Numbered from the stretch's first letter, positions 1,402 to 14,448 are shown. The stretch: DNA of 64,000 nt from Patescibacteria group bacterium (GCA_013387215.1 WARW01000003.1:10227-74226); one strand, 5' to 3'. Numbers and translations are program-made. Notes: a model not told the origin generated them from the letters alone.

Positions 1402-1782
1402 ATGGGCATGAATAAAAATGATAAATATACATGTCCCTGCTGTGGTTATAAAGTATTTAACGAACAACCAGGATCATTTGAAATTTGTCCAATTTGTTAT
1501 TGGGAAGATGAAGCAAAACAACTAAGATATCCTAAGGAAACTGGAGCCAATAGAATCAGTTTGATTAAAGCGCAGGAAAATTACGAAAAACACGGCGTGA
1601 GCGATTTAAATTTAAAAATGCTGGTTCGTGAAGCAGATGAAAATGAGGAAAAAGATCCAAACTGGCGAAAGTTAGATTTAAAAAAAGATAAAATTGCTGA
1701 AAAAAGAGACAAGGTAAATATATATCCACACGATTTGACCAGGCTTTATTATTGGGAAGAAAATTATTTAGTTGAAGAATAA
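1402..1782 (+). CDS. Cysteine-rich CPCC-domain protein
   Basis: N-terminus CPCCGYKVFNEQPGSFEICPICYWEDE matches the CPCC small-domain pattern. The 3' end overlaps the convergent rnhB by 19 nt. Confidence 0.7.
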   Translation: MGMNKNDKYTCPCCGYKVFNEQPGSFEICPICYWEDEAKQLRYPKETGANRISLIKAQENYEKHGVSDLNLKMLVREADENEEKDPNWRKLDLKKDKIAEKRDKVNIYPHDLTRLYYWEENYLVEE

Positions 1783-2399
1783 TTTTTTACAGGTTTATAG
1801 GAAAAGCGATGAATCGGGCAAGGACCGAGTTTTTCTAGACCTTGCTGATGTGATTTGGTGCCATAACCCTTATTATTGACGAAATCATAACCAGGATAAA
1901 GCTTGTCGAATTCAGTCATTTCTTGATCTCTCATGACTTTGGCACAAATAGAAGCAGCGGCCACAGAAAAACAGTTTAAATCGGCTTTAATAACACTTTT
2001 GTAAGGACAATTTATGTCAAGTTTCATATTGCCGTCAATTAAAACAAAATCATAACGATTTTCAAAAAAAGTAATAGCCTTTTCAATTGAACTAATGATT
2101 GCTTGCTGAATACCCAGAGTGTCGATTTCTTTGGAACTGGAAGAAATTACTTTGAAAGGAAAATTACGCTTTTTGATTTCTTGAAAAGCAGACTCTCTTT
2201 TGGAAGGCAAAAGACATTTGGAGTCTTTAATATTTTTTTGAAAAAATTCCAAATCAAAATTATTAGTGTCCAACAGAAATGCACCAACAGCTACTGATCC
2301 AGCCCAAGGACCGCGACCAACTTCATCAATGCCTAGAATAAAGCGGCAATTTTGAGGGATTAAAGATTTTTCATAATTAAAGTCAGGAGTGTTTTTCAT
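1764..2399 (-). CDS. rnhB: Ribonuclease HII
   Basis: Motifs GIDEVGRGPWAGSVAVGAF, LIDGN and ASICAKVMRD. The start was moved to the internal ATG (MKNTPDF, 2399) because the 2462 start would overlap the divergent pepF. Confidence 0.9.
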   Translation of the reverse strand: MKNTPDFNYEKSLIPQNCRFILGIDEVGRGPWAGSVAVGAFLLDTNNFDLEFFQKNIKDSKCLLPSKRESAFQEIKKRNFPFKVISSSSKEIDTLGIQQAIISSIEKAITFFENRYDFVLIDGNMKLDINCPYKSVIKADLNCFSVAAASICAKVMRDQEMTEFDKLYPGYDFVNNKGYGTKSHQQGLEKLGPCPIHRFSYKPVKNYSSTK

Positions 2400-2430
2400 G
2401 GGAAATATTAGGTAAATTGTATAATAGAGT

Positions 2431-4206
2431 ATGAATATTTTAAAGTGGAACCTGGACGACATATTATCTGTTGAAAAATTTGATGAATTTTTTTGGGAAA
2501 TTCAAAATGATATTGGTTATTATCCACAACTAATTAAAAAACTAGACCCTCGAATGGAAGAGGAATTGTTTAAAGAGATAATAGATTTTGATGAAAATTT
2601 GAGCGAGAAAATTTCCAGATTGAGTTATCTGCCTCACTTAATGGAAACTACCAACCAAAAAGACCAGAAGGCTCAAATTTTAAAATCAAAAGCAGACCAA
2701 ATAATTGTTAGCTATGAGGAAGTTTCAAGAAAATTATTTCACTGGCTTAAGGGAAAAAAGGTTAACGAATTAGAGATTTTGGACAATAAAAATGCAGAAA
2801 GACTATTTGAATCGATTCCTGATTTGGAATTTCAACTTAAACATAATCGTGAAGCATCAAAATACGCTTTAAACGAATCTGAAGAAAACATAATTAGCAA
2901 TAAAAATATTAGCGGAATATTTGCAGTCAAAGATTTACGAAGACAAATATCAACTGGTTTTAGATATAAATTAAAGATTAAAAATCAAAAAACAAGAATA
3001 ATTAAAACACAAGCCGAATTAACAAATTTAGCGCACAGCTCTAAACCAGAAGAAAGAAAAGCGGCCTACTTAAGCTTGTTTAAAGAGTATGAAAAAAATT
3101 TAGATAAATTTTTTATAATTTATCAAGCAGTGGTTAAAGATTGGAATTATGAAGCAAAACTTAGAGGTTATGAAAGCGCCATCAGCATTAGAAATTTTAA
3201 TAATCATATTTCTAATGAAGTAATTGAGATGTTATTAAAAACCTGCAGTGAAAATAAATATGTTTTTCAAAAATATTTTAGATATAAAGCAAAAGAAATG
3301 GGGGTTGAGAAATTAAATCGTTTTGATATTTATGCTCCATTTAAGGCTAGGACTTATAAACACATAGAATTTAATAAAGCAAAAGAGTTGGTTTTAGAAA
3401 CATTTAAAGAATTTTCACCCAGTTTTTACAATCAGGCCAAAAAAATATTTGACGATAAACATATTGATTCCCACCCGAATCCAGAAAAAAGAAGCGGTGC
3501 ATTTTGTGCAACAATCAGTCCTAAAATAACTCCTTACATAATGATGAATTTTACAGGTGAAAAAAATGATTTATATACATTAGCTCATGAACTAGGACAC
3601 GGTATTCACAGTTTATTGGCAAATAATCATTATTATTCAAGTCAGCAGGCTACCCTACCTCTGGCTGAAACCGCTTCCACTTTATCGGAATTAATTTTGT
3701 TTGAAAAAACTTATAAAAATGAACACGATTCTAAAGTTAAAAAAACAATGCTGATTGACCAGATAGCAAGTTCTTATGCAAGCATATTGAGACAAAATTA
3801 TTTTGTGCTATTTGAAATTGAAGCCCATAAATTGATTAATTCAGGGTGCAATTCCAGCCAATTGTCGGAATTGTGGCTAAATACATTAAAGGAGCAGTTT
3901 GGGGATAGTGTAGAGGTGGATAGGGTTTTTAAAAATGAATGGGCTTATATCCCCCATATCTTTGATACACCATTTTATTGCTACAGCTATAATTTTGGAG
4001 AACTATTAAGTTATGCTTTGTATAGTAGATATAAAAAGGAAGGTTTAAGTTTTGTTTCTAAAATTGAAACGATATTGAAAAGCGGAGGTTCAGAGGATCC
4101 CGAAAAAATATTAATGAATGCTGGAATAAATATTAAGGATAAAAACTTTTGGCAGAGTAGTTTTGAGATAATAAATGAATGGCAATCTACATTAGAGAAA
4201 TTGTAA
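2431..4206 (+). CDS. pepF: Oligoendopeptidase F (M3B metallopeptidase)
   Basis: 591 aa, with the zinc motif HELGHGIHS followed by a downstream Glu (LAETAS). Length and layout are typical of PepF. Confidence 0.85.
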   Translation: MNILKWNLDDILSVEKFDEFFWEIQNDIGYYPQLIKKLDPRMEEELFKEIIDFDENLSEKISRLSYLPHLMETTNQKDQKAQILKSKADQIIVSYEEVSRKLFHWLKGKKVNELEILDNKNAERLFESIPDLEFQLKHNREASKYALNESEENIISNKNISGIFAVKDLRRQISTGFRYKLKIKNQKTRIIKTQAELTNLAHSSKPEERKAAYLSLFKEYEKNLDKFFIIYQAVVKDWNYEAKLRGYESAISIRNFNNHISNEVIEMLLKTCSENKYVFQKYFRYKAKEMGVEKLNRFDIYAPFKARTYKHIEFNKAKELVLETFKEFSPSFYNQAKKIFDDKHIDSHPNPEKRSGAFCATISPKITPYIMMNFTGEKNDLYTLAHELGHGIHSLLANNHYYSSQQATLPLAETASTLSELILFEKTYKNEHDSKVKKTMLIDQIASSYASILRQNYFVLFEIEAHKLINSGCNSSQLSELWLNTLKEQFGDSVEVDRVFKNEWAYIPHIFDTPFYCYSYNFGELLSYALYSRYKKEGLSFVSKIETILKSGGSEDPEKILMNAGINIKDKNFWQSSFEIINEWQSTLEKL

Positions 4207-4211
4207 TTAAG

Positions 4212-4234
4212 TGATATAATTTACATGTAAATTA
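4212..4234 (+). promoter_or_regulatory. Extended -10 (TGATATAAT, 4212-4220) overlapping a perfect 18-bp palindrome TAATTTACATGTAAATTA (4217-4234)
   Basis: Read directly. The palindrome equals its own reverse complement. It lies about 100 nt upstream of the small peptide ORF. Confidence 0.35.
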
Positions 4235-4337
4235 AGGGTAATGTTTGTTTATTTCAAACATGAAGTTCATTTTTTATTCATAATTATATTTTTTAATTAA
4301 TTGTTAATAATTAAAAAAATTAAGGTGGTGATAATAA

Positions 4338-4454
4338 ATGAAAAAATTAATGGAAGAAATATTAACAGATAAAAGTGCCCGAAACATGGCTCAAACAGAT
4401 GCTTTATCACTTGCTGTTGAAGAAGTTGGCGATCCATGGCAAAGTATTGCTTAA
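4338..4454 (+). CDS. Small peptide (38 aa), candidate ComX-like pheromone precursor
   Basis: ATG at 4338 is preceded by AAGGTGGTGA (4322-4331), and the stop is TAA at 4452-4454. Translation: MKKLMEEILTDKSARNMAQTDALSLAVEEVGDPWQSIA. It is not in the ORF track because it is under 60 aa. It sits 31 nt upstream of the kinase gene. Confidence 0.55.
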   Translation: MKKLMEEILTDKSARNMAQTDALSLAVEEVGDPWQSIA

Positions 4455-4485
4455 TAATTAAATTAAAACCTAGAAATTAAAACTA

Positions 4486-5961
4486 ATGCTAAAAACAATC
4501 ATAAACAAATTAATTTCTAGGTTTAATAATTACTTATTTAATTTTTCCCGGATAAGTGATGAAGATTTGAGGCGAAAGGCTAAGATTTTTAATATAATCA
4601 CTTTCTCTATTTTTTTATTGACTTTATATTCTCTTGCGACTTGGATATTTGGTTATTGTTTTATTGATAGATCTTCTGACAGAAATTTTAGCCACATAAT
4701 TCCAATTTTAGTACTTACACTATTGCCAATTATATTGTTAAAAGTTTCCTTATTAGGAAAACCAAGATTAGCAGCTTGGATATTAATATCATTACTATTA
4801 TTGGCTACATTAAGAACTTCTTTAATTTATGGTGTAAATGTACCAATGGCAACTGTAAGTTATGCGCTAATAATTTTTATGAGCGGAATCTTGGTTGGGC
4901 CATTAAGTGCTTTTTTATTAACAATAATAATTTTTGGTTGCTTGTTAAGCATTTTCTTTTCCCACACGTGGCATTTTATTGAGGTATATTCTGATTGGAA
5001 GAATAAATCTTCTGATATATCGGATATTCTGATATTGAATGTTATATATTTGGTCATTGCAATAGTGTCATGGTTATCGAGCCGAGAAGTTAACAAATCA
5101 CTTAAAAATGCTAATTTATCAGAACAGAAAGCTTTAATGTTGGCTGACAAATTACAAAAACAAAATGATGATCTGGAAAAAATAGTAGAAGAAAGAACAC
5201 AAGAACTTAGGGAACATCAATTAAAACAGCTGATGGAAATAAATACGTTGGCTGAATTTGGAAAAATATCAGCAGGATTATTACATGATTTGAAGAATCC
5301 ATTAACGGTAATTTCAATGAATTTAGACAGTATTAATGATTACGTTAAAGACAAAAATATTTTAAGTCAATCGGAATGGAAAAAATTAATCAACAATTCT
5401 TTATTAGCTTCCAGAACAGTGGAATCAATGGTCAGAACTTCGCAAAAGCAATTAATTAATGAAGATACTAAAGTATTATTTGATTTAAAAAAGGAAATTA
5501 AAAATACTTTAATACTTTTGAATACAAGAGCAAATAAGTTTGGGATAGAAATAAAATTTGTATGTAAAGAATCAATAAACATATTCGGTTGTCCAACAAA
5601 ACTGTCTAGAGTTTTAGCCAACCTAGTTGTAAATAGTATAGATGCTTTGAGGGATGCAAAAAGAGATTTTCCAAAAATAACTATTGAAGTTCAGAAAAAT
5701 AAAACTTCAATAGAAATTATGATTAAAGATAATGGCTGCGGTATTAAAGACGAAGACAAGAAAAATATTTTTCAAGCATTATTTAGTACAAAAAAAGAAA
5801 TGAATAATTCTGGTTTAGGCCTATTTATCAGTAAAACTATTTTGGATAGTTGTTTTAAAGGTACTATTAGTTTTAAAAGTACCTGGGGTGAAGGAAGTGA
5901 ATTTTTAATCGATATTCCGGTTTTAAAACAAAATGGAGCAAAAACTAAACAAAGTAATTGA
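4486..5961 (+). CDS. Sensor histidine kinase with a 6-TM N-terminal sensor region
   Basis: About six hydrophobic helices lie in aa 30-200, followed by a coiled coil. H-box SAGLLHDLKNPLT, N-box NLVVNSIDAL, G1 DNGCGI, G2 GLGLFIS. Confidence 0.9.
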   Translation: MLKTIINKLISRFNNYLFNFSRISDEDLRRKAKIFNIITFSIFLLTLYSLATWIFGYCFIDRSSDRNFSHIIPILVLTLLPIILLKVSLLGKPRLAAWILISLLLLATLRTSLIYGVNVPMATVSYALIIFMSGILVGPLSAFLLTIIIFGCLLSIFFSHTWHFIEVYSDWKNKSSDISDILILNVIYLVIAIVSWLSSREVNKSLKNANLSEQKALMLADKLQKQNDDLEKIVEERTQELREHQLKQLMEINTLAEFGKISAGLLHDLKNPLTVISMNLDSINDYVKDKNILSQSEWKKLINNSLLASRTVESMVRTSQKQLINEDTKVLFDLKKEIKNTLILLNTRANKFGIEIKFVCKESINIFGCPTKLSRVLANLVVNSIDALRDAKRDFPKITIEVQKNKTSIEIMIKDNGCGIKDEDKKNIFQALFSTKKEMNNSGLGLFISKTILDSCFKGTISFKSTWGEGSEFLIDIPVLKQNGAKTKQSN

Positions 5962-7807
5962 TAAAGGAATTGCCTTTTTAACTGATGAATTAGAAAAGAA
6001 TGTATATTTTGGATTTGAAAGCATATTTCCAATGATTTTGGTTTTTGATTGTCTTAATGAAATTGACAATAAAGGCAGCTACTTGATTAAAGCGAAAATT
6101 AAAAAAGTTTTATTGAAAGAGAAAAATGAATTATGGTCTTTTAATTATTGGAAAAGAAAATCGATAAAAAACAAAATAGAACCATATCCTGAGGATCTTG
6201 ATGATACATGTTTAGCACTTAGTGCTTTATATAGATTTGATAAAAAAGTTTTCAAGGGCAATGATCTTGCAAAAATAATTAATCTTTTAATATTGGCGGA
6301 AGAAAAGATAGGCGGCCCATATCGTACTTGGATATTGGCTAAAGAAAAGTCGGAAAAATGGAGTGATATCGATATTGCAGTTAATAGCAACATTGGATAT
6401 TTTTTAAAATTACAAAAAATTAAGTTAAAGAACTTAACTGAATTAATTGAAAATGGAATCATTAAAGACAAAATATATTCCCCTTTTTATAAAGGTGAGC
6501 TGCCCGTAATTTATTTTATTTCCCGTTTTTATAATGGGAAATTAAAAAATATTTTGAAAGAAAAACTTATCAATAAGGCAAATACTAGCGATTCGGCCTT
6601 AGATTTAGCTTTGATAATAAGCAGTTTAATCAGACTCGGTTATAAAAATATAAAAGAAGACTGGGTTAAGAAAATATGTACAAAACAATCCAAATCAGGA
6701 AATTGGATAGGTGAAGATTTTTATTTTTATGTAGACAAATTAAAACAAACTAATTTTATTGGTACTGAAAGCATTAGTACGGCTTTTATTTTGGAAGCTT
6801 TAACTTTATATATAAATCAAAAACTCAAATTTAAAGATCCATTGTTTTTAGAGATTAATGAGTTTAAAAAAGAAACAGTTTTCAGGCTAGAAAAAGTTTT
6901 TGAAAAGCATCCCGATAAATTAAAAAAGGAAATATTAACATTTATCAAAAACTTAGCTTCGAGCAGTGAATCAGAAATGATAATTGCGACGCCATTAATT
7001 GTTTTAAATTCTATCGATACGGAATTAAAGATCAAAATAACAAAAGATTTTATTGTCAAATTAGGACAAATTAATTTATTGGGATGGTGTGCATATACGA
7101 TTTACGACGATATTATGGACAGTGATTCTTCAGGAAAAATGATTCCAATGGCAAATATAATTTGCAGGGAGATGGAATCAATACTAGGCAGTCTTCCAAT
7201 AAACAAGGAAACAGGTTTTTTTAATTTTTCCAAATTTTTATTGCAAAAAATGGAAATAAGTAATTGGTTTGAACAGAATTATTTATGTCTTAACTCTAGC
7301 AATAATACAATCGATGAGTTTGATTATAAAAAGTTAGCCGATAAGTCTTTAGGACATGCATTGAGCTCAGTAGCAATTTTATGTTATTTGAAACAATCAG
7401 TAAGGTCTTTAGAGGTCCGTTATTTAATGAATTATTTTAGATATTTTATTGTTGCTAAACAGATGAATGATGACGTTCATGATTGGTTAGAAGATTTAGA
7501 AAAAGGCCAAATAAACAGTGCGAGTTATGGATTAATAAAATTTTTAGAAAAAAACAATAAAAGTATTTATAAAGAAATCATGAATAAAGAAAATTTAAAA
7601 TTAATTTTTTGGCAAAATATTGTTCCTGATTATTGTAATAAAATAATATATTTTTCAAATAAAGCGAAAAGAGCATTAAACCAATCCAGTTTAATTATCA
7701 ACAAACTATATTTATTGAATTTAAATAATAAGAATGTAGAATTATGTAGAATTGCATTAAAAGAAAGAAAAAATACATTAGACTTTATAAAAAATTACTA
7801 CAAATGA
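5933..7807 (+). CDS. Two-domain isoprenoid-enzyme-like protein: N-terminal terpene-cyclase/prenyltransferase-repeat-like domain plus C-terminal polyprenyl-synthase/ComQ-like domain
   Basis: DLDDT at aa 88-92 (nt 6194-6208) and a QW-type motif QSKSGNW at aa 252-258 (6686-6706). Two DDxxD motifs: DDIMD aa 392-396 (7106-7120) and DDVHD aa 513-517 (7469-7483), 121 aa apart. It overlaps the kinase gene by 29 nt and the regulator gene by ATGA. Confidence 0.5.
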   Translation: MEQKLNKVIDKGIAFLTDELEKNVYFGFESIFPMILVFDCLNEIDNKGSYLIKAKIKKVLLKEKNELWSFNYWKRKSIKNKIEPYPEDLDDTCLALSALYRFDKKVFKGNDLAKIINLLILAEEKIGGPYRTWILAKEKSEKWSDIDIAVNSNIGYFLKLQKIKLKNLTELIENGIIKDKIYSPFYKGELPVIYFISRFYNGKLKNILKEKLINKANTSDSALDLALIISSLIRLGYKNIKEDWVKKICTKQSKSGNWIGEDFYFYVDKLKQTNFIGTESISTAFILEALTLYINQKLKFKDPLFLEINEFKKETVFRLEKVFEKHPDKLKKEILTFIKNLASSSESEMIIATPLIVLNSIDTELKIKITKDFIVKLGQINLLGWCAYTIYDDIMDSDSSGKMIPMANIICREMESILGSLPINKETGFFNFSKFLLQKMEISNWFEQNYLCLNSSNNTIDEFDYKKLADKSLGHALSSVAILCYLKQSVRSLEVRYLMNYFRYFIVAKQMNDDVHDWLEDLEKGQINSASYGLIKFLEKNNKSIYKEIMNKENLKLIFWQNIVPDYCNKIIYFSNKAKRALNQSSLIINKLYLLNLNNKNVELCRIALKERKNTLDFIKNYYK

Positions 7808-8484
7808 ATATACTATATATAGAAGACGATAAACAATTAGCCAAAACTATCCAACAAAAACTGATTTCTCATTACAATGTTGATATCTCTCCAACTGGTA
7901 AAAAAGGCATCATTTTAGCCGAGAATAAAGAATATGATCTTTTTATAATTGACTACTATCTGCCAGATCAAAACGGAATTCAAGTTTGTAAAAAAATTAG
8001 AGAGGTTGATACCAAAACACCAATTTTGGTTTTTACTACTAACGATACTAAAAAAGATGTGGTTGAAGCGCTTGATGCAGGAGCTGATGATTATTTGACA
8101 AAACCATTTTCTTATCAAGAGTTAGAAGCCAGAATCAGAGCACTTGTAAGAAGAAACAGTCGTAAGCAGCCAACCAAGCAGATAAATGTTGGCAAATTGA
8201 CTATTAAATTGGATGATCAATATATTGTTTTAAACAAACAATATATTAAATTGCCGAGGCAAGAATATATGCTTTTAAAATATTTGACCACAAATAAAGG
8301 AAAATTGGTTTCACGAGAGGAACTCTATGAACATGTATGGGGTAGAGATGATTACTATAATTCAAACACAATAGACGTCCACATAAGGCGTTTGAGAAAA
8401 AGATTAAAAGAACTTGTTGGAGAAAACTGCATTAAGTCGGTTTATGGAAGTGGATATAAAATATATAATTTTCAAGAAGAATAA
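7804..8484 (+). CDS. OmpR-family response regulator (receiver plus winged helix)
   Basis: Receiver motifs (DLFIIDYYLPDQNG, the T of VFTTND, and KPF). C-terminal trans_reg_C pattern (TIDVHIRRLRKRL, GYK). Confidence 0.9.
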   Translation: MNILYIEDDKQLAKTIQQKLISHYNVDISPTGKKGIILAENKEYDLFIIDYYLPDQNGIQVCKKIREVDTKTPILVFTTNDTKKDVVEALDAGADDYLTKPFSYQELEARIRALVRRNSRKQPTKQINVGKLTIKLDDQYIVLNKQYIKLPRQEYMLLKYLTTNKGKLVSREELYEHVWGRDDYYNSNTIDVHIRRLRKRLKELVGENCIKSVYGSGYKIYNFQEE

Positions 8485-8614: not shown

Positions 8615-9262
8615 ATGAACGAAAAAATCAAAAAACAACTCACGGCATTTTTTAACAAATATAAACTTATAAAGTATAAAAAGGGTCAAATTCTTTTTAA
8701 ACCAGGTGAGAGAATTAATGGTATTTTATTTGATAAAAGTGGTTACGTAAGAGTCTACACTATCTCAAAAGAAGGAAAGGAAATTACACTACCAATGTTA
8801 AAACCTTTATTTTTCTGTTCTTTAGTCGATGCTTTATTGGGCAAAGAAAACAAATATTACATTGAAGCTATTAGCCCAGTGGAATTATGGCTGGCTCCAG
8901 AAAACGAATTTATGGATTTTATCAAACAAGATCCAGATCTTTACGATAAAATGACCAAATCTATGTTGAATGATTTTATGGATTTAACTAATAATGTTCA
9001 ACAGCTTATTTTTGGGGATGCATACACAAAGATTGCCAGTTTAATATATTCGATGTCAGAAAAATTTGGAGAAATGAAAGGCAAAGAAACCGTCATCGGA
9101 TTTAATACTCCCCACAGAATGTTGGCTAGCATGACTGGGTTAACCAGAGAAACAGTGACTCTACAAATCTTAAAATTACAAAAGGAAGGCTTTTTGTATA
9201 ATAAAGGCCGAAGAATTGTAATTAAAGATATGGAAAAACTCAAAGAAATTGCTCAGGTCTAA
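8615..9262 (+). CDS. Crp/Fnr-family transcriptional regulator
   Basis: N-terminal cNMP-binding-like beta-roll, C-terminal HTH (RMLASMTGLTRETVTLQILKLQKEGFL), 215 aa. Confidence 0.8.
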   Translation: MNEKIKKQLTAFFNKYKLIKYKKGQILFKPGERINGILFDKSGYVRVYTISKEGKEITLPMLKPLFFCSLVDALLGKENKYYIEAISPVELWLAPENEFMDFIKQDPDLYDKMTKSMLNDFMDLTNNVQQLIFGDAYTKIASLIYSMSEKFGEMKGKETVIGFNTPHRMLASMTGLTRETVTLQILKLQKEGFLYNKGRRIVIKDMEKLKEIAQV

Positions 9263-9283
9263 TTTTTGGTCTATAATTTGTTT

Positions 9284-9700
9284 ATGACTAGTTCAAGTAG
9301 GATTTACAGATCTAAAAATGAGTACATAATTGCCGGTGTTTGCGGAGGTTTGGCGGAACATTTTAATATTGATCCAACCATAGTTAGGATAATTTTTATC
9401 CTCTTAACTTTAGGTGGCGGGAGCGGAATATTAATATATATAATTCTGTGGTTGGTTTTACCTATGGAAGGAAAAAATGAGCCGGATGATTTGAAAGATA
9501 GAGTTAAAGAAATTTCAGAAGAGTTTAAGAATAATTATTCAAATAGAGAAAAGAGAGGTAACTTTTTGGGAATTATAATATTGTTGATTGGCGTAGTTGC
9601 TTTGTTGGACCAGATTCAACCAGCAATAATCAGATGGGATATTTTTTGGCCAGCCGTTTTGATTATGACAGGGTTGTTTTTGATATTTAGAAAAAGATAA
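9284..9700 (+). CDS. PspC-domain membrane protein
   Basis: YRSKNEYIIAGVCGGLAEHFNIDPTIVRIIFILLTL followed by TM helices. The ATG at 9284 is preferred over the track's TTG at 9266. Confidence 0.8.
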   Translation: MTSSSRIYRSKNEYIIAGVCGGLAEHFNIDPTIVRIIFILLTLGGGSGILIYIILWLVLPMEGKNEPDDLKDRVKEISEEFKNNYSNREKRGNFLGIIILLIGVVALLDQIQPAIIRWDIFWPAVLIMTGLFLIFRKR

Positions 9701-9892: not shown

Positions 9893-10279
9893 ATGATTAA
9901 AAGGATCCTAATAATAATTTCAATAATTGTACTTTATCTAATTCCTAAAAACATTAAATATGATAAAAAAACAAACCCTTCATTGGTAAATAATTCGCAA
10001 GTGATTGTTAGCCAAACCCCCTTAATAAGCAGCAGAGGTATCAAAATAAAAAATATAAATGCCCCTGAGATAATTGGTGTTAACGGAAAAGAAAATTTCT
10101 ATCCAGACCACAGCCTACCTATTAATATAAACAATATCCTATTGATTGGCTCTGCCATATTTATTAGTTCAGGAATTGGTCTTTTAGAAATAGACAATAT
10201 GGTGGCGAGAGTGAGAAATCTTGTTAATAAAATTAACTTTAACGGCTCTTTAGTTAAATTCATTAATAGAATATTATGA
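9893..10279 (+). CDS. Small membrane-anchored hypothetical protein, first gene of the cellulose-synthase-like operon
   Basis: ATG at 9893 (MIKRILIIISIIVLYLIP...) and an ATGA overlap with the next gene. No recognisable domain. Confidence 0.45.
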   Translation: MIKRILIIISIIVLYLIPKNIKYDKKTNPSLVNNSQVIVSQTPLISSRGIKIKNINAPEIIGVNGKENFYPDHSLPININNILLIGSAIFISSGIGLLEIDNMVARVRNLVNKINFNGSLVKFINRIL

Positions 10280-11463
10280 ACAAAAGAATTTTGGGCTATT
10301 TATTTATAGTATTAGGGATTGCAGTTTTTGGATATGTTTTGTATGTTAATAGCCAATACATTGATTTAACTCGGCCGTTTTCGTCATATACTTTGTTGAT
10401 TTCTTCATGGGAAAAATATAAACAAGAATTTATAAATAAAGACGGCAGAGTAATTGATTATTCCCAAAGCGGAATTACAACATCTGAAGGCCAAAGTTAC
10501 GCCATGCTTAGATCAGTATATATTGATGACAAAGGCGCTTTTGACCAAGTTTGGAATTGGAGCAAAATAAATCTTAAAAGACCAACTGATAATCTTTTTG
10601 GGTGGAAATGGGGTTTAACCAGTGATAATAAATATGGGTTTTTAGAAAATGGAGGAAGTAATTCAGCTGCCGATGCAGATACCGATATCGCTTTGGCACT
10701 AATATTTGCGGGAAAGCGCTGGAAAAATGATGAATATATAAACCAATCAAAAACAATCTTAAAGGATATTTGGGATAAAGAAACTGGAGTGGCTGCTGGA
10801 AAAAGATATCTGATTGCCGGGAACTGGGCAACTGATGGAAATATGCTAATTATTAATCCTTCATATTTTGAGCCATACGCCTGGAGAATTTTTGCCACAG
10901 TCGACAAAGATCATGACTGGAATAGTTTAATCGGCCCGGCTTATGCTTTATTGACAGATTCAGGAAAAAGTAATCTGGATAAAAATTCATCGGTGGGACT
11001 GCCTCCAGATTGGGTAGAAATTGATAAAACAACAGGTGTTTTAAAGGCACCAAGTTTTGCCAATTTAACCACAAATTATAGTTTTGATGCTATGAGAATT
11101 CCCTGGAAAATTGGATTGGATTATCAATGGAACAAAAATCAGGAGGCTTACAATTACCTGGCTCAATCATTTAAAAAAATATCGGAAATATATGCGACTG
11201 ATGGTAAGCTGCCAACATCACTGTCTCACGATGGACAAATAGTTCAAGATCAAGAAAATCCAACCATGTACGCAACTGCAATTGGTTATTTTATGTTGGC
11301 TGACCCCATAGCAGCAAAAAAAATATATCAAGAGAAAATCCTCAACTTATATTCCAACGACCAAAACATGTTCAACAGCAATCTTCCCTACTATGAACAA
11401 AACTGGTTATGGTTTGGTTCGGCAATTTACAACCACGAAATAAATAGTTTAAGCAATCAATGA
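10276..11463 (+). CDS. Glycoside hydrolase family 8 endoglucanase (BcsZ-like), membrane anchored
   Basis: SEGQSYAML catalytic-Glu region and a near match to the GH8 signature AADADTDIALALIFAGKRW. N-terminal TM anchor. Confidence 0.8.
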   Translation: MNKRILGYLFIVLGIAVFGYVLYVNSQYIDLTRPFSSYTLLISSWEKYKQEFINKDGRVIDYSQSGITTSEGQSYAMLRSVYIDDKGAFDQVWNWSKINLKRPTDNLFGWKWGLTSDNKYGFLENGGSNSAADADTDIALALIFAGKRWKNDEYINQSKTILKDIWDKETGVAAGKRYLIAGNWATDGNMLIINPSYFEPYAWRIFATVDKDHDWNSLIGPAYALLTDSGKSNLDKNSSVGLPPDWVEIDKTTGVLKAPSFANLTTNYSFDAMRIPWKIGLDYQWNKNQEAYNYLAQSFKKISEIYATDGKLPTSLSHDGQIVQDQENPTMYATAIGYFMLADPIAAKKIYQEKILNLYSNDQNMFNSNLPYYEQNWLWFGSAIYNHEINSLSNQ

Positions 11464-13010
11464 AATTTAATATAAACAAAGGCCTCCTAGAAAGAGGAAA
11501 AATTGATAAGTCGTTAATAGGGCTTAATTTGGCCATGACTGCTTTTTATTTTTCTTGGTGGCTGACACCGTCGCATATAGATAATAAGTTTTTATATTTT
11601 CTATTGTTTATAGGGGAAATTTATCATATTTTTATGGCCTTAACTTTTTGGCACACAATTGCTCCGGGGCAATTAAAAATTAAAAAAGTGAATAGATCTA
11701 AAAAATTCTTGCCTACAGTAGACATATTTATAACAGTAGCAGGAGAACCAGTAGAAATAGTAAAACAGACAATAAACAAAGTTTTGAACATGAACTATCC
11801 AAAATCTTTTATATATATATTGAATGATAGTTTAGTGGCTAAAAAAGAAAATTGGAGAGAGTATGAATATTTAGCTGAAGAAATGGGGGTTTTTTGCATA
11901 ACCAGAACCGTGTCTGGAGGTGCAAAAGCCGGCAATATTAATCATGCCTTAAAAATAACCACAGGCAAATTAATTGCCATCTTTGATGCCGATATGCAAC
12001 CAAGACCGAATTTTTTATCCAGATTAATACCCTATTTTAGAAACAAAAAGGTTGGTTTTGTGCAAACTCCTCAATATTATAAAAACTGGCAAAATAATTT
12101 GGTTAGCAGCGGCGCATGGGCCCAACAAGAGTTTTTTTTCGGCCCAATAATGAAAGGGAAAGAAAAAAGTAATTCGGCTTTTATTTGCGGAACAAATTTT
12201 TTGATAAGACGAACTGCTTTATTGGAAGCTGGCGGAATGCAGGAGAATAATATTGCAGAGGATTTTTTAACATCACTGTTTGTTCATAATAATGGCTGGC
12301 TGTCTTATTATGTAAACGAAGTGTTGAGTGAGGGTCTGGCTCCAGAAGATATGTTGTCATACTTTAAACAACAACTAAGATGGGCCAGAGGGTCATTGGA
12401 AATCGTATTTACTAGAAATAATCCTCTTTTCAAAAAAAGATTGAGTTGGCACCAAAGGATTGAATATTTATCATCATCTTTGTATTACTTTAATGGAATT
12501 ATAGTTCTAATCGATATTGTAATGCCATTGTTGTTTTTATTTTTTGGAATACGACCAGTAGCAGCTAGCTCCACCTCGTTTGCACTTTTCTTTGTACCTT
12601 TTATATTTTTAAATTTATATTCACTAAGAATGGCTTCTGCCGACAGAATATCCTTTCAAGCATTATCATTCACTCAGTCGTCTTGGACACTCCAAATTTT
12701 GGCTCTAAAATCAATTCTTTTAAAACAAAAAATGAAGTTTGAAGTTACTTCAAAAAGGGCTCTGACTGGAAACTACATAAACTTAGCTTATCCTCATATT
12801 ACTTATATTGTTTTAGCATTTATGGGATCGATCACAGCTGTGCTTAGAGAAGGAATTAACCCATCAGTAATAACAAACATTGCCTGGGTATTAGTAAATA
12901 CAATATTATTTATTCCATTTATTATGGCAGCTTATAAGGCTGAAGGTGTTCCACGACCCAAACTGGAAATCGATCTGGCAACTGAAAATGAAAGAAAACA
13001 TGTCAAATAA
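11460..13010 (+). CDS. Family-2 processive beta-glycosyltransferase, cellulose-synthase-like (BcsA-like core, no PilZ domain)
   Basis: DADMQP, QTPQ, FICGTNFLIRR, AED (TED-like) and QQLRW (QxxRW). TM helices lie before and after the GT domain. The protein ends about 200 aa after QxxRW with no RxxxR/DxSxxG PilZ motifs. Confidence 0.8.
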   Translation: MKFNINKGLLERGKIDKSLIGLNLAMTAFYFSWWLTPSHIDNKFLYFLLFIGEIYHIFMALTFWHTIAPGQLKIKKVNRSKKFLPTVDIFITVAGEPVEIVKQTINKVLNMNYPKSFIYILNDSLVAKKENWREYEYLAEEMGVFCITRTVSGGAKAGNINHALKITTGKLIAIFDADMQPRPNFLSRLIPYFRNKKVGFVQTPQYYKNWQNNLVSSGAWAQQEFFFGPIMKGKEKSNSAFICGTNFLIRRTALLEAGGMQENNIAEDFLTSLFVHNNGWLSYYVNEVLSEGLAPEDMLSYFKQQLRWARGSLEIVFTRNNPLFKKRLSWHQRIEYLSSSLYYFNGIIVLIDIVMPLLFLFFGIRPVAASSTSFALFFVPFIFLNLYSLRMASADRISFQALSFTQSSWTLQILALKSILLKQKMKFEVTSKRALTGNYINLAYPHITYIVLAFMGSITAVLREGINPSVITNIAWVLVNTILFIPFIMAAYKAEGVPRPKLEIDLATENERKHVK

Positions 13011-14448
13011 ATTACTAGTGCTGATAGTTCTGGTGACATCCCTAATCAGCATTTATTTTCTTTTTACACAATCGATTCGTTTAGATGAGGCTCAATCGAT
13101 ATGGATGTTTACTAAATCGATTCCCGGGATGCTCAAACTTACTTCTCAAGATGTAAATTTACCGCTTTACGGAATAATTATGCATTTCTGGCTGCAGATA
13201 TTAGGAATAAATATTGTTAGAGCCAGATTATTATCTTTGATATTCTTTTTAATAACATTACCAGTTCTGTACCAACTAATAAAAGAATCGAGCGATAGTG
13301 ATCATGCAATTTTAACAGTAGCATTTTTTGCTTTTTCTCCTTTTATTTTGTGGTACACCAGTGAAGCCCGAACTTATACGTTGTTTATATTAATTGCTTG
13401 TTTACAACAATTATATTTTTTACGATTAATCAGAAGTGGTGGAAATAACGGAAAATTTGGTTATTTTATTGGTACTGCACTTGGATTTTATACACATTAT
13501 TTTTTTATTTTCCTTTTAATTGCCCAAATAGTTTTTGTACTGAGTTTAAGAATAGTTAAAGGTAAAAATAAAAATAGGTTAATTAAACGTCACCTAATTT
13601 TAGATTTTGGAGGTTTATTGGTTTTTATTCCTTGGATTTATTATATTTTTAGGACCGGAGGAGCGGTTAACACACAGCCATTAATTCCTATTCCAAACAG
13701 CTATAGCGTGGTGCAGACTTTTGTTAATTTTGTGGTGGGATTTCAATCTCAATCAATTCAAGCAGTCTTAATTTCTCTTTGGCCACTTTCGACTGTAATT
13801 TTATTTTTAATGTTTACACATAGGAAACAAAAATTGGTTAAAAATGTCGAATACTTTTTTTTAGTCACTTTTTTACCGATTATTTTAGTGTTTTTAATAT
13901 CTTTTATAAAACCCATTTTTTTATCTAGATATTTAATTTTAGTGACACCAACATTATTTTTTATAATTGCATGGATAATTTTGAGTAATTCTAAAAAAAT
14001 ATCTTTTTATTTATCGGTATTAATTTTGCTTTTGATGTTTAGTTTTTTAATGTTTCAGAACATTTCGGCAGCAACTCCAAGTAAAGAAAACTATAGTGAA
14101 GTTAGCCAATATTTGAACCAATATACAACACCAGAAGATATTGTGGCAATTACTGCTCCATTTACTATTTATCCAATTGAATACCAATACCAAGGTGAAG
14201 CTAAATTAGTAACAATTCCTAATTGGGATAAATATGTTGAAGGACCAATCCCCCAATATAATTCTGATAATCTAGTTAAACAAATTAATGACTATAAAAC
14301 TCAATATAATCGTTTGTTTGTGGTTTTTTCGTATGATCAGGGATATGAAAATGATATAAAAAATTATCTGGACACACATTATGCCATCATGGGAATGGGA
14401 AAGTTTTCGGACAGTATTGAAATGAGAATCTACAAATTGAGATACTAG
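12988..14448 (+). CDS. GT-C fold glycosyltransferase (GT39/GT83, ArnT/PMT-like)
   Basis: First-loop motif RLDEAQSIW, more than 10 TM helices and a soluble C-terminal domain. The start is uncertain (ATG at 12946, 12988 or 13000). Confidence 0.65.
   Translation: MKENMSNKLLVLIVLVTSLISIYFLFTQSIRLDEAQSIWMFTKSIPGMLKLTSQDVNLPLYGIIMHFWLQILGINIVRARLLSLIFFLITLPVLYQLIKESSDSDHAILTVAFFAFSPFILWYTSEARTYTLFILIACLQQLYFLRLIRSGGNNGKFGYFIGTALGFYTHYFFIFLLIAQIVFVLSLRIVKGKNKNRLIKRHLILDFGGLLVFIPWIYYIFRTGGAVNTQPLIPIPNSYSVVQTFVNFVVGFQSQSIQAVLISLWPLSTVILFLMFTHRKQKLVKNVEYFFLVTFLPIILVFLISFIKPIFLSRYLILVTPTLFFIIAWIILSNSKKISFYLSVLILLLMFSFLMFQNISAATPSKENYSEVSQYLNQYTTPEDIVAITAPFTIYPIEYQYQGEAKLVTIPNWDKYVEGPIPQYNSDNLVKQINDYKTQYNRLFVVFSYDQGYENDIKNYLDTHYAIMGMGKFSDSIEMRIYKLRY

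Follow-up and report, generated by a model that had tools for sequence, protein, structure and literature searches.

Bacterial peptides carrying a prenylated tryptophan are known from several systems. ComQ and PalQ are tryptophan prenyltransferases resembling trans-isoprenyl diphosphate synthases (hereafter trans-IDS) and are encoded beside kinases (PMC13290415, PMC10853753). ComQ is devoid of the second Asp-rich motif (PMC10853753). The PalPXQ system, whose sequence is distant from that of ComQ, came to light by means of genome mining and AlphaFold; its precursor PalX is of the NHLP type and its Trp must be C-terminal (PMC10853753). ChrPC (Hubrich et al., Chem 2024;10:3224) is described in a review as prenylating an internal Trp with C10-C20 donors, after which the attached prenyl group is cyclised (PMC13290415). 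ComQXPA and PalPXQ are the systems closest to the locus described here. As regards the enzyme, the closest known counterparts would be, judging by the review description, the ChrPC-type prenyltransferase-cyclase RiPP maturases and not ComQ alone.

The locus lies in a 64-kb stretch of DNA, hereafter the window. On balance, we read it as a four-gene module that makes and senses a prenylated, cyclised Trp peptide and is conserved across Patescibacteria (CPR). Its features are as follows.

4322-4331, + strand: Shine-Dalgarno sequence of the peptide gene, AAGGTGGTGA, spacer 6 nt, read directly from the sequence
4338-4454, + strand: putative precursor peptide gene, 38 aa, MKKLMEEILTDKSARNMAQTDALSLAVEEVGDPWQSIA
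4466-4480 and 4510-4524 (whole 4466-4524), + strand: perfect inverted repeat with 15 nt arms, a stem-loop around the kinase start codon at 4486
4486-5961, + strand: sensor histidine kinase, 491 aa, HisKA and HATPase_c
5933-7807, + strand: fused enzyme, whole, 624 aa
5933-6835, + strand: enzyme N-terminal domain, aa 1 to ~301, predicted single beta-domain class II terpene cyclase
6191-6208, + strand: DxDD motif EDLDDT, enzyme aa 87-92; D90 is invariant and the predicted general acid
6839-7807, + strand: enzyme C-terminal domain, aa ~303-624, trans-isoprenyl-diphosphate-synthase fold, predicted Trp prenyltransferase
7106-7120, + strand: first Asp-rich motif, DDIMD, D392-D396
7460-7495, + strand: second Asp-rich region, Q510-x-x-D513-D-x-H-D517-W-x-x-D521, containing DDVHD (aa 513-517)
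7804-8484, + strand: OmpR-type response regulator, 226 aa, Response_reg and Trans_reg_C (receiver and winged-helix DNA-binding domains)

The preliminary description had presented the four ORFs as co-directional and tightly packed, with a near-consensus Shine-Dalgarno sequence before the first, and this is what the sequence contains: the peptide and kinase genes are separated by 31 nt, the kinase and enzyme genes overlap by 29 nt and the enzyme and regulator genes by ATGA. In the kinase, about six hydrophobic helices joined by short loops fall within aa 37-199, and it has no sizeable extracytoplasmic domain; its pairing with an OmpR-type regulator, also proposed earlier, agrees with the domains found in both proteins. 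The peptide-kinase-enzyme-regulator order (X-P-Q-A) holds for the window, but it is the order of a sub-lineage; regulator-peptide-kinase-enzyme (A-X-P-Q) is the commonest arrangement in other loci. Downstream of the module, genes coding for Crp and PspC are located in the window and in close relatives. The upstream pepF, mentioned previously as a possible link to peptide turnover, is outside the module and is syntenic in the closest relatives only (L081 and L082, against 0 of 80 loci).

The fused enzyme was found in at least 358 species genomes and at least 1477 clusters at 50% identity (E<=1e-30), and the kinase, the 624-aa enzyme and the OmpR-type regulator co-occur across Patescibacteria. 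The only large genes common to the loci are those of the enzyme (81/81), the kinase (78/81) and the regulator (67/81). Homologues of the kinase, its transmembrane region included, are located directly upstream of the enzyme gene in 77-78 of 80 loci, and the regulator was found in 65-67 of 80, mostly upstream of the peptide gene. In two loci (L054, L079) the peptide and kinase genes are on the strand opposite to the enzyme gene, yet still adjacent to it. This recurrence of peptide, kinase and enzyme together is more than chance, and the four-part logic of peptide, polytopic kinase, isoprenoid enzyme and regulator proposed for the window proves to be conserved across Patescibacteria. No protease, exporter/transporter or immunity gene is conserved in the loci compared.

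The 38-codon ORF is a genuine gene and did not arise by chance. Its exact product is recorded in a protein collection from the NCBI contig, and an orthologous 38-aa gene was predicted by a gene caller in locus L081. tblastn found the peptide upstream of the kinase gene in 15 loci; reading of ORFs combined with alignment extended the set to 68-72 orthologues. A profile HMM built for the peptide and run against 83 related sequences (1.0 Mb, 28,472 six-frame segments) gave one match per locus, directly upstream of the kinase gene, in 73 of them at E<=1e-3, and no second match in any at this threshold. Five of the matched loci (L017, L054, L079, L081 and L082) had been absent from model building. 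The next-best hit, a weak one, occupies the same position in L028, and the remaining sequences are cut at contig ends. As the preliminary description had required for its reading to stand, a small ORF with a Trp near its C-terminus is thus conserved upstream of the kinase gene in essentially every related locus that has the region. At least 45 of the 68 orthologous genes are preceded by a strong, GAAAGGAGGTGA-like Shine-Dalgarno sequence.

As noted before, the window peptide has no Cys and a single Trp. This residue, W34 (codon 4437-4439), is located four residues before the end and is preceded by Pro. The conservation is strongest at the amino-acid level in residues 1-16, and an N-terminal LTDKxAR-like motif is kept in all 72 peptides read. 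Trp occupies position 33-35 in 68/68 tabulated orthologues, is the only one in 66 of these and directly follows Pro in 58; it is never terminal, 1-7 residues following it in every case. Between Met and Trp, these 68 sequences align with hardly any gaps. Such a fixed length (34 residues) is unusual for a leader followed by a variable core, and this counts against the explanation we prefer.

All enzyme motifs pointed out in the preliminary description are present: EDLDDT, a QW-like QSKSGNW, and DDIMD and DDVHD 121 residues apart. In the AF2 model (mean pLDDT 93) the N-terminal half is an alpha/alpha-barrel beta domain and has no gamma domain. Among solved structures, drimenol synthase (AsDMS) is its nearest relative, with 22% identity over the beta domain, and the invariant D90 of the D88-L-D90-D91-T92 motif aligns with AsDMS D323, the general-acid Asp of a DxDD-type motif (PMC12232559). 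From these sequence and model features this half, which had been left unassigned earlier, is predicted to be a single-domain class II terpene cyclase. The enzyme is indeed twice the size of ComQ, as had been remarked, and the additional domain explains this. In AsDMS, phosphate is bound by R368, R370 and R415 (PMC12232559). The corresponding positions here are W143 (invariant), D145 and P184, which argues for a cyclase substrate without a diphosphate. The presence of the cyclase domain changes the expected product from plain geranyl- or farnesyl-Trp to a cyclised terpenoid on Trp.

The C-terminal half matches the fold of trans-isoprenyl diphosphate synthases, a similarity on which the preliminary description had made its reading depend. 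Canonical enzymes of this kind, including the prenyltransferase domain of the fungal PvCPS, share with it both Asp-rich motifs in register (FARM and SARM); D513, D514 and D517 show no or almost no variation, and Q510 and D513 are invariant in 48/48 members. For Trp recognition, a Gln located just upstream of the second Asp-rich motif has been cited along with the first Asp of that motif (PMC13290415). Since FQxxDD also occurs in canonical synthases, Q510 does not discriminate Trp prenyltransferases. The hhalign alignment and the conservation table contain neither of the IPP-site motifs, GKxxR (motif I) and the RRG expected to follow the first Asp-rich motif, and the Pfam polyprenyl_synt profile PF00348 matches 0/48 members. 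We predict from sequence and model that this half is a Trp prenyltransferase with a trans-IPPS fold. Two other assignments were rejected: a canonical chain-elongating synthase, which would be expected to match PF00348 and to have GKxxR and RRG, and membership in the ComQ family, given the retained second Asp-rich motif and the lack of any Pfam or NCBIfam match for the window enzyme.

The locus shares with Bacillus subtilis ComQXPA the same four roles, all encoded co-directionally and adjacently. The position of W34 near the end of a 38-residue peptide resembles that of the ComX tryptophan; the two are analogous, not homologous, and the modification is here predicted. The enzyme has only the fold in common with ComQ, from which it differs by the profile results and by its cyclase domain. 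In contrast to ComP and ComA, the kinase and regulator are of the HisKA/OmpR and not the HisKA_3/NarL class, and neither gene order found here is Q-X-P-A. Paenibacillus alvei PalP-PalX-PalQ is similar in that a kinase, a precursor with a Trp and a Trp prenyltransferase of trans-IDS-like type are encoded in one cluster (PMC10853753), but PalQ has no cyclase domain and the Trp here is not terminal. ChrPC, as the review describes it, is a single polypeptide combining a trans-IDS-like Trp prenyltransferase with a single-domain MstE-like class II cyclase (PMC13290415). Here, too, the prenyltransferase and class II cyclase are fused and encoded with a Trp-containing precursor, as is characteristic of the ChrPC type; architecture and folds agree with that description, and the predicted substrate is likewise a Trp inside a ribosomal peptide. 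Unlike in ChrPC, the cyclase domain is N-terminal and is nearest in sequence to the drimenol synthase beta domain, the precursor is very short and of fixed length, and the module includes a two-component system and is spread across Patescibacteria. AsDMS differs in being fused to a phosphatase and using free FPP (PMC12232559), and MstE stands alone as an enzyme, its substrate being a prenylated benzoate.

Gene, synteny, fold and conservation evidence thus supports the prenyl-peptide signalling system suggested earlier, with the refinements given above; peptide modification and signalling are what we infer from it. The 38-aa peptide would be a ribosomal precursor. The C-terminal half, having lost the IPP site, would bind a prenyl diphosphate (C15-C20 being the likeliest) via its two Asp-rich motifs and transfer the prenyl group to W34, the sole internal Trp, in the manner of ComQ, PalQ and the ChrPC P domain. 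The N-terminal half could then use D90 to protonate the attached prenyl chain at its distal double bond and so form rings; MstE, acting on a prenylated aromatic, and the ChrPC C domain, acting on a prenyl-Trp peptide, are precedents. The resulting cyclic-terpenoid peptide, possibly trimmed, would leave the cell and partition into membranes; the six-TM kinase may sense it and phosphorylate the OmpR-type regulator, which would control this module along with other genes. Within the window, the search for a prenyl-diphosphate synthase gave no match; a separate canonical polyprenyl synthase gene (PF00348, E 8e-55) adjoins the module in 17/80 loci and could supply the donor there.

The conserved Trp peptide beside a kinase, a regulator and a fused enzyme in hundreds of CPR bacteria is probably a lipid-decorated signal similar to that of ComQXPA and, if so, a rare candidate for cell-to-cell signalling among these ultrasmall bacteria. 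More tentatively, it may be a lineage-wide pheromone of the Patescibacteria's own, a peptide whose only Trp bears a sterol-like terpenoid of several rings, produced by one fused enzyme and perceived by a dedicated six-TM kinase. Should this be true, a huge and barely cultivated group would have a candidate circuit dedicated to cell-to-cell or episymbiont-host signalling, and bacterial autoinducers would gain a new chemical class.

In keeping with the lifestyle of CPR bacteria, which are attached to host cells, the modified peptide could be a membrane-active effector, antimicrobial or host-directed, and not an autoinducer, with the two-component system regulating only its production or a protective response. 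A review treats the characterised cyclic-terpene RiPPs and prenylated peptides chiefly as bioactive compounds that interact with membranes (PMC13290415), and the downstream Crp and PspC genes would fit an envelope-stress theme. Still, we find an effector unlikely: immunity, transporter and protease genes do not accompany the module, whereas the kinase is the peptide's tightest partner, adjacent and co-oriented even when the enzyme gene is on the other strand, and its membrane-only sensor repeats the pattern of ComX/ComP and PalX/PalP. Somewhat less probable still is a small-molecule terpenoid synthase comparable to the fungal prenyltransferase-copalyl diphosphate synthase fusions and to drimenyl diphosphate synthases, in which a prenyl diphosphate made or ionised by the synthase-fold half is cyclised by the class II half, and the small protein assists the kinase instead of being a substrate. 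The missing IPP-site motifs and PF00348 matches and the replaced phosphate-holding Arg residues speak against it, and the separate synthase next door in 17 loci makes chain elongation by the fusion unnecessary. Strict conservation in the peptide is limited to the N-terminal motif and the Trp at a fixed distance; a TM-like stretch in only 10/72 peptides argues against a membrane mini-protein.

The stem-loop at 4466-4524 could suggest that the ORF is a regulatory leader, in which ribosome pausing near Pro-Trp controls the kinase operon by trp-type attenuation or TnaC-like arrest. The structure is stable (MFE -14.8 kcal/mol, z -4.84, equal folding in 0/200 shuffles) and contains the kinase start codon, the regions 3' of the peptide genes of relatives likewise surpass mononucleotide shuffles in folding (mean z -2.5), and Pro-Trp is close to the stop codon. 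Nevertheless, we regard a leader as very improbable, as there is one Trp and not a run, the best conserved residues are far from the stop codon, and the tail after Trp varies in length and sequence, leaving no fixed stall site. Nor would a leader explain why the Shine-Dalgarno sequence is strong and why the ORF is strictly paired with an enzyme resembling Trp prenyltransferases. In a module producing and sensing a modified Trp peptide, the stem-loop may possibly act as an attenuator or a transcript-end structure that sets the ratio of peptide to kinase expression.

The four co-directional genes proposed in the preliminary description as a ComQXPA-like peptide-pheromone module were recovered by ORF reading in an AT-rich window (about 30% G+C), in the following arrangement:

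4338-4454, plus strand: precursor peptide gene
4486-5961, plus strand: sensor kinase gene
5933-7807, plus strand: gene of the 624-aa enzyme
7804-8484, plus strand: response regulator gene (OmpR type)
2431-4206, 1764-2462 (minus strand) and 8615-9700: module flanks, coding for RNase HII, an M3 oligoendopeptidase (PepF-like) and a Crp-family regulator with a PspC/LiaF-like membrane protein

The spacing is as originally described: a 31-nt gap separates the peptide gene from the kinase gene, which overlaps the enzyme gene by 29 nt, and the enzyme and regulator genes overlap by ATGA. The peptide has a single Trp (W34), and its gene is preceded by the Shine-Dalgarno sequence AAGGTGGTGA with a 6-nt spacer. 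The enzyme motifs (DLDDT, a QW-like motif and two DDxxD motifs spaced 121 residues apart) were all found. The kinase sensor does consist of about six hydrophobic helices with short loops (aa 37-199), followed by HisKA and HATPase_c, and domain scans agree on the OmpR type of the regulator.

A perfect 15-nt inverted repeat (window 4466-4524), able to form a stem-loop (MFE -14.8 kcal/mol, z -4.84), is located directly after the peptide stop codon. The kinase start codon lies in the loop, the 3' arm is inside the kinase gene, and no obvious Shine-Dalgarno sequence was found ahead of the window kinase ATG. Folding in excess of shuffles (mean z -2.5) is also seen in the regions 3' of orthologous peptide genes, and strong GAAAGGAGGTGA-like Shine-Dalgarno sequences precede at least 45 of 68 such genes. 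The combination of a strong Shine-Dalgarno sequence and a stem-loop after the peptide gene may favour production of the peptide over that of the downstream gene products.

The small ORF is a genuine gene and is conserved: ORF reading and a peptide HMM locate an orthologue upstream of the kinase gene in almost every related locus (L001-L082, surrounding enzyme relatives in other genomes). Tblastn with the 38-aa peptide found matches in 15 loci, each time just upstream of the kinase. The 68 orthologous peptides (67 distinct) align nearly without gaps from Met to Trp and have the consensus M-K-x-L-x-K-K-(I/V)-L-T-D-K-x-A-R-N, then a variable stretch and P-W. Trp occupies position 33-35, is the only one in 66 of the 68, follows Pro in 58 and is itself always followed by one to seven residues. 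Two peptides, those of L010 and L018, end in PWCC and PWECC; no other peptide has such a Cys pair after Trp, and in those lineages it could point to an additional modification or a disulfide.

The complete six-frame translation of 83 sequences (1.0 Mb, 28,472 segments) was searched with the peptide profile HMM. At E ≤ 1e-3 it matched exactly one segment in 73 of the sequences and nothing else; the next-best match (L028, E 0.007) likewise immediately precedes the kinase gene. Nine sequences lack any match: eight are cut at a contig end, and the ninth is L029. Five matches were outside the training set (L017, L054, L079, L081, L082). Two of these five come from Saccharimonadales loci, L054 (~5622-5726, minus strand) and L079 (~4397-4780, minus strand; its peptide region holds a masked run of N), where peptide and kinase genes are both encoded opposite to the enzyme gene and diverge from it. 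As the pair stays together there, the peptide-kinase linkage survives rearrangement. No second copy of the peptide gene was found within the 64-kb window.

A conserved transmembrane mini-protein was also considered as a reading of the peptide. It is unlikely, since a membrane-helix-like hydrophobic stretch is present in just 10 of 72 peptides and 44 of the 72 have at least two mid-peptide charges.

With the window proteins as queries, tblastn detected the kinase in 77 of 80 loci and the regulator in 65. The kinase gene is directly upstream of the enzyme gene on the same strand in nearly all loci that have it. All-against-all ORF clustering gave similar numbers (enzyme 81/81, kinase 78/81, regulator 67/81) and showed no other large gene to be shared by the loci. 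The commonest gene order is regulator, peptide, kinase, enzyme; the regulator-last order of the window is common to its closest relatives L081 and L082. In the closest relative, L081 (enzyme 57% identical), the kinase region (3553-4999) is split between two called ORFs, of 292 and 204 aa, possibly reflecting a frameshift, a pseudogene or an assembly error.

The enzyme was modelled by AlphaFold with the family alignment at high confidence (mean pLDDT 93, pTM 0.87). Phmmer with the single enzyme sequence found no match among PDB sequences, so a family profile was needed; it matched the drimenol synthase AsDMS with an E-value of 1.4e-14 over a region spanning the PDDLDxT motif. Foldseek concurs with reading the N-terminal half (aa 1 to ~300) as a class II terpene cyclase. 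In D88-L-D90-D91 the middle Asp, D90, is invariant and aligned to D323, the general acid of AsDMS (PMC12232559). In AsDMS, R368, R370 and R415 hold the substrate phosphate (PMC12232559); the alignment places W143 (which is invariant), D145 and P184 at these positions, and we read this as a sign that the cyclase substrate carries no diphosphate.

After the kinase and regulator, the most frequent neighbour is a protein of about 348 aa, encoded directly beside the module in 17 loci and identified as a canonical polyprenyl synthase (PF00348, E 8e-55). Its gene mostly overlaps or abuts the 3' end of the enzyme gene (e.g., L014 7917-8963); the loci include L001, L006, L007, L014, L021, L030, L031, L033, L034, L039, L040, L041, L046, L058, L061 and L071. 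This synthase is likely a dedicated supplier of the prenyl donor; none was found within the 64-kb window.

Hhalign of the C-terminal half (aa ~303-624) with these neighbouring synthases (E 2.2e-5) puts its first (YTIYDDxxD) and second (QxxDDxHD) motifs in register with the canonical ones. The PF00348 (polyprenyl_synt) profile, which the preliminary description had suggested as a check, matches none of 48 family members. The GKxxR and RRG motifs of canonical synthases have no counterpart, and the only well-conserved basic positions in this half are R412, K/R471 and K/R509. The C-terminal domain thus seems equipped for binding and ionising a prenyl diphosphate, and not for binding IPP. Q510, located just upstream of the second Asp-rich motif, is invariant among family members. 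A conserved Gln at this place was described as part of Trp recognition (PMC13290415). Since canonical synthases share FQxxDD, Q510 is consistent with Trp recognition and not diagnostic of it.

A 2026 review places ComQ and PalQ together with the ChrPC P domain in one group of trans-IDS-like prenyltransferases, all of them targeting Trp (PMC13290415). According to the same review, ChrPC and NctPC (Hubrich et al., Chem 2024) are prenyltransferases fused to an MstE-like cyclase: a peptide Trp is prenylated, with donors up to C20, and the prenyl group is cyclised afterwards (PMC13290415). By architecture, the enzyme family is a ChrPC-like maturase, as judged against that description of ChrPC. ComQ and ChrPC both target an internal Trp, as would be needed for the window peptide. 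PalQ is encoded together with kinase PalP and precursor PalX, and requires a C-terminal Trp (PMC10853753). The module resembles ComQXPA and PalPXQ in system logic, and to this extent the originally proposed likeness stands; as ComQXPA proper it fails on enzyme profile, kinase/regulator class and gene order alike.

We propose that a ribosomally made precursor of about 35-40 aa would be prenylated at W34 by the C-terminal domain, and the attached chain would then be cyclised by the N-terminal domain in a protonation-initiated reaction via D90. The product would be released, possibly after trimming, and detected within the membrane by the 6-TM kinase, with phosphotransfer to the OmpR-type regulator. 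Modification of the peptide Trp by the enzyme is probable; the whole chain including signalling we hold to be slightly better than an even guess.

The chemistry may be as proposed and the product an effector instead of a signal, which we consider unlikely. Somewhat less likely still is a free-terpenoid synthase accompanied by a small protein serving as a kinase accessory. The residues at the phosphate-binding positions and the conserved single Trp speak against it. That the small ORF, followed by a stem-loop and with Pro-Trp close to its stop codon, is a regulatory leader peptide seems very improbable. Peptide modification followed by signalling remains our preferred reading.

The enzyme family is large and mostly confined to CPR bacteria (Patescibacteria). 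The first homologue search yielded 52 full-length relatives of 550-680 aa, and a repeat with the alignment as query recovered the same proteins. When one genome per species was scanned with a pattern, at least 358 genomes proved to hold relatives; the best 80 of these almost all carry the label Patescibacteria (Microgenomates lineages, Saccharibacteria, Parcubacteria lineages and Doudnabacteria). An exhaustive profile search, covering 1.84 billion cluster representatives, retrieved 3212 proteins at E ≤ 1e-3, of which 1477 reach E ≤ 1e-30; each of the top 150 is full-length. Neither the window enzyme nor the peptide has a usable match in Pfam or NCBIfam, and only some enzyme homologues match SQHop_cyclase_C, TED_complement or Prenyltrans weakly. 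Precomputed annotation assigns PF28380, a model absent from our Pfam scan, to homologues P0021, P0024, P0030 and P0042; this entry may already define part of the family.

CPR bacteria account for a large part of bacterial diversity; their genomes are tiny, and little is understood of how they regulate their activities and communicate. The four-gene module occurs in at least 358 species genomes and about 1,500 sequence clusters; that reduced genomes have retained it so widely suggests an important function. To our knowledge, prenyl-Trp peptide signalling has so far been known from Bacillus and Paenibacillus. If the prediction is true, it reaches a distant superphylum, the recently found cyclic-terpene peptide chemistry becomes tied to signal transduction, and one peptide, enzyme and kinase provide a concrete, testable way to study how these episymbionts perceive one another or their hosts. 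For peptide lipidation, the module would moreover be a source of compact prenyltransferase-cyclases in many natural variants.

Neither the enzyme class (2024) nor the concept of Trp-prenyl peptide pheromones is new. Three features appear to be so: a cyclase-prenyltransferase fusion is strictly coupled to a two-component system, the precursor is very short, of fixed length and marked by the LTDKxAR motif, and the module is spread broadly across Patescibacteria. The literature searched contained no CPR paper also mentioning peptide prenyltransferases, terpene cyclases or precursor peptides, and nothing relevant pairing CPR with ComQ, ComX, terpene or RiPP; a CPR quorum-sensing survey mentions neither ComQ nor ComX.

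PepF, tentatively linked to the module in the preliminary description, is present in none of the 80 loci and is syntenic only in the nearest relatives L081 and L082; it therefore counts as a neighbour in this lineage and does not belong to the module. The whole flanking arrangement of RNase HII, M3 oligoendopeptidase and the Crp-family and PspC/LiaF-like genes recurs in the same two loci and not in the other 80. Farther out (window 10276-13010, 165-1388 and 12946-14448) a GH8 glycoside hydrolase gene precedes one for a cellulose-synthase-like GT2, and both sides code for large PMT_2-type membrane glycosyltransferase-like proteins, which suggests an exopolysaccharide or cell-surface glycan locus adjoining the module. 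Window 1402-1782 codes for a 126-aa Cys-rich protein of the CPCC family (PF14206, E 1.8e-26).
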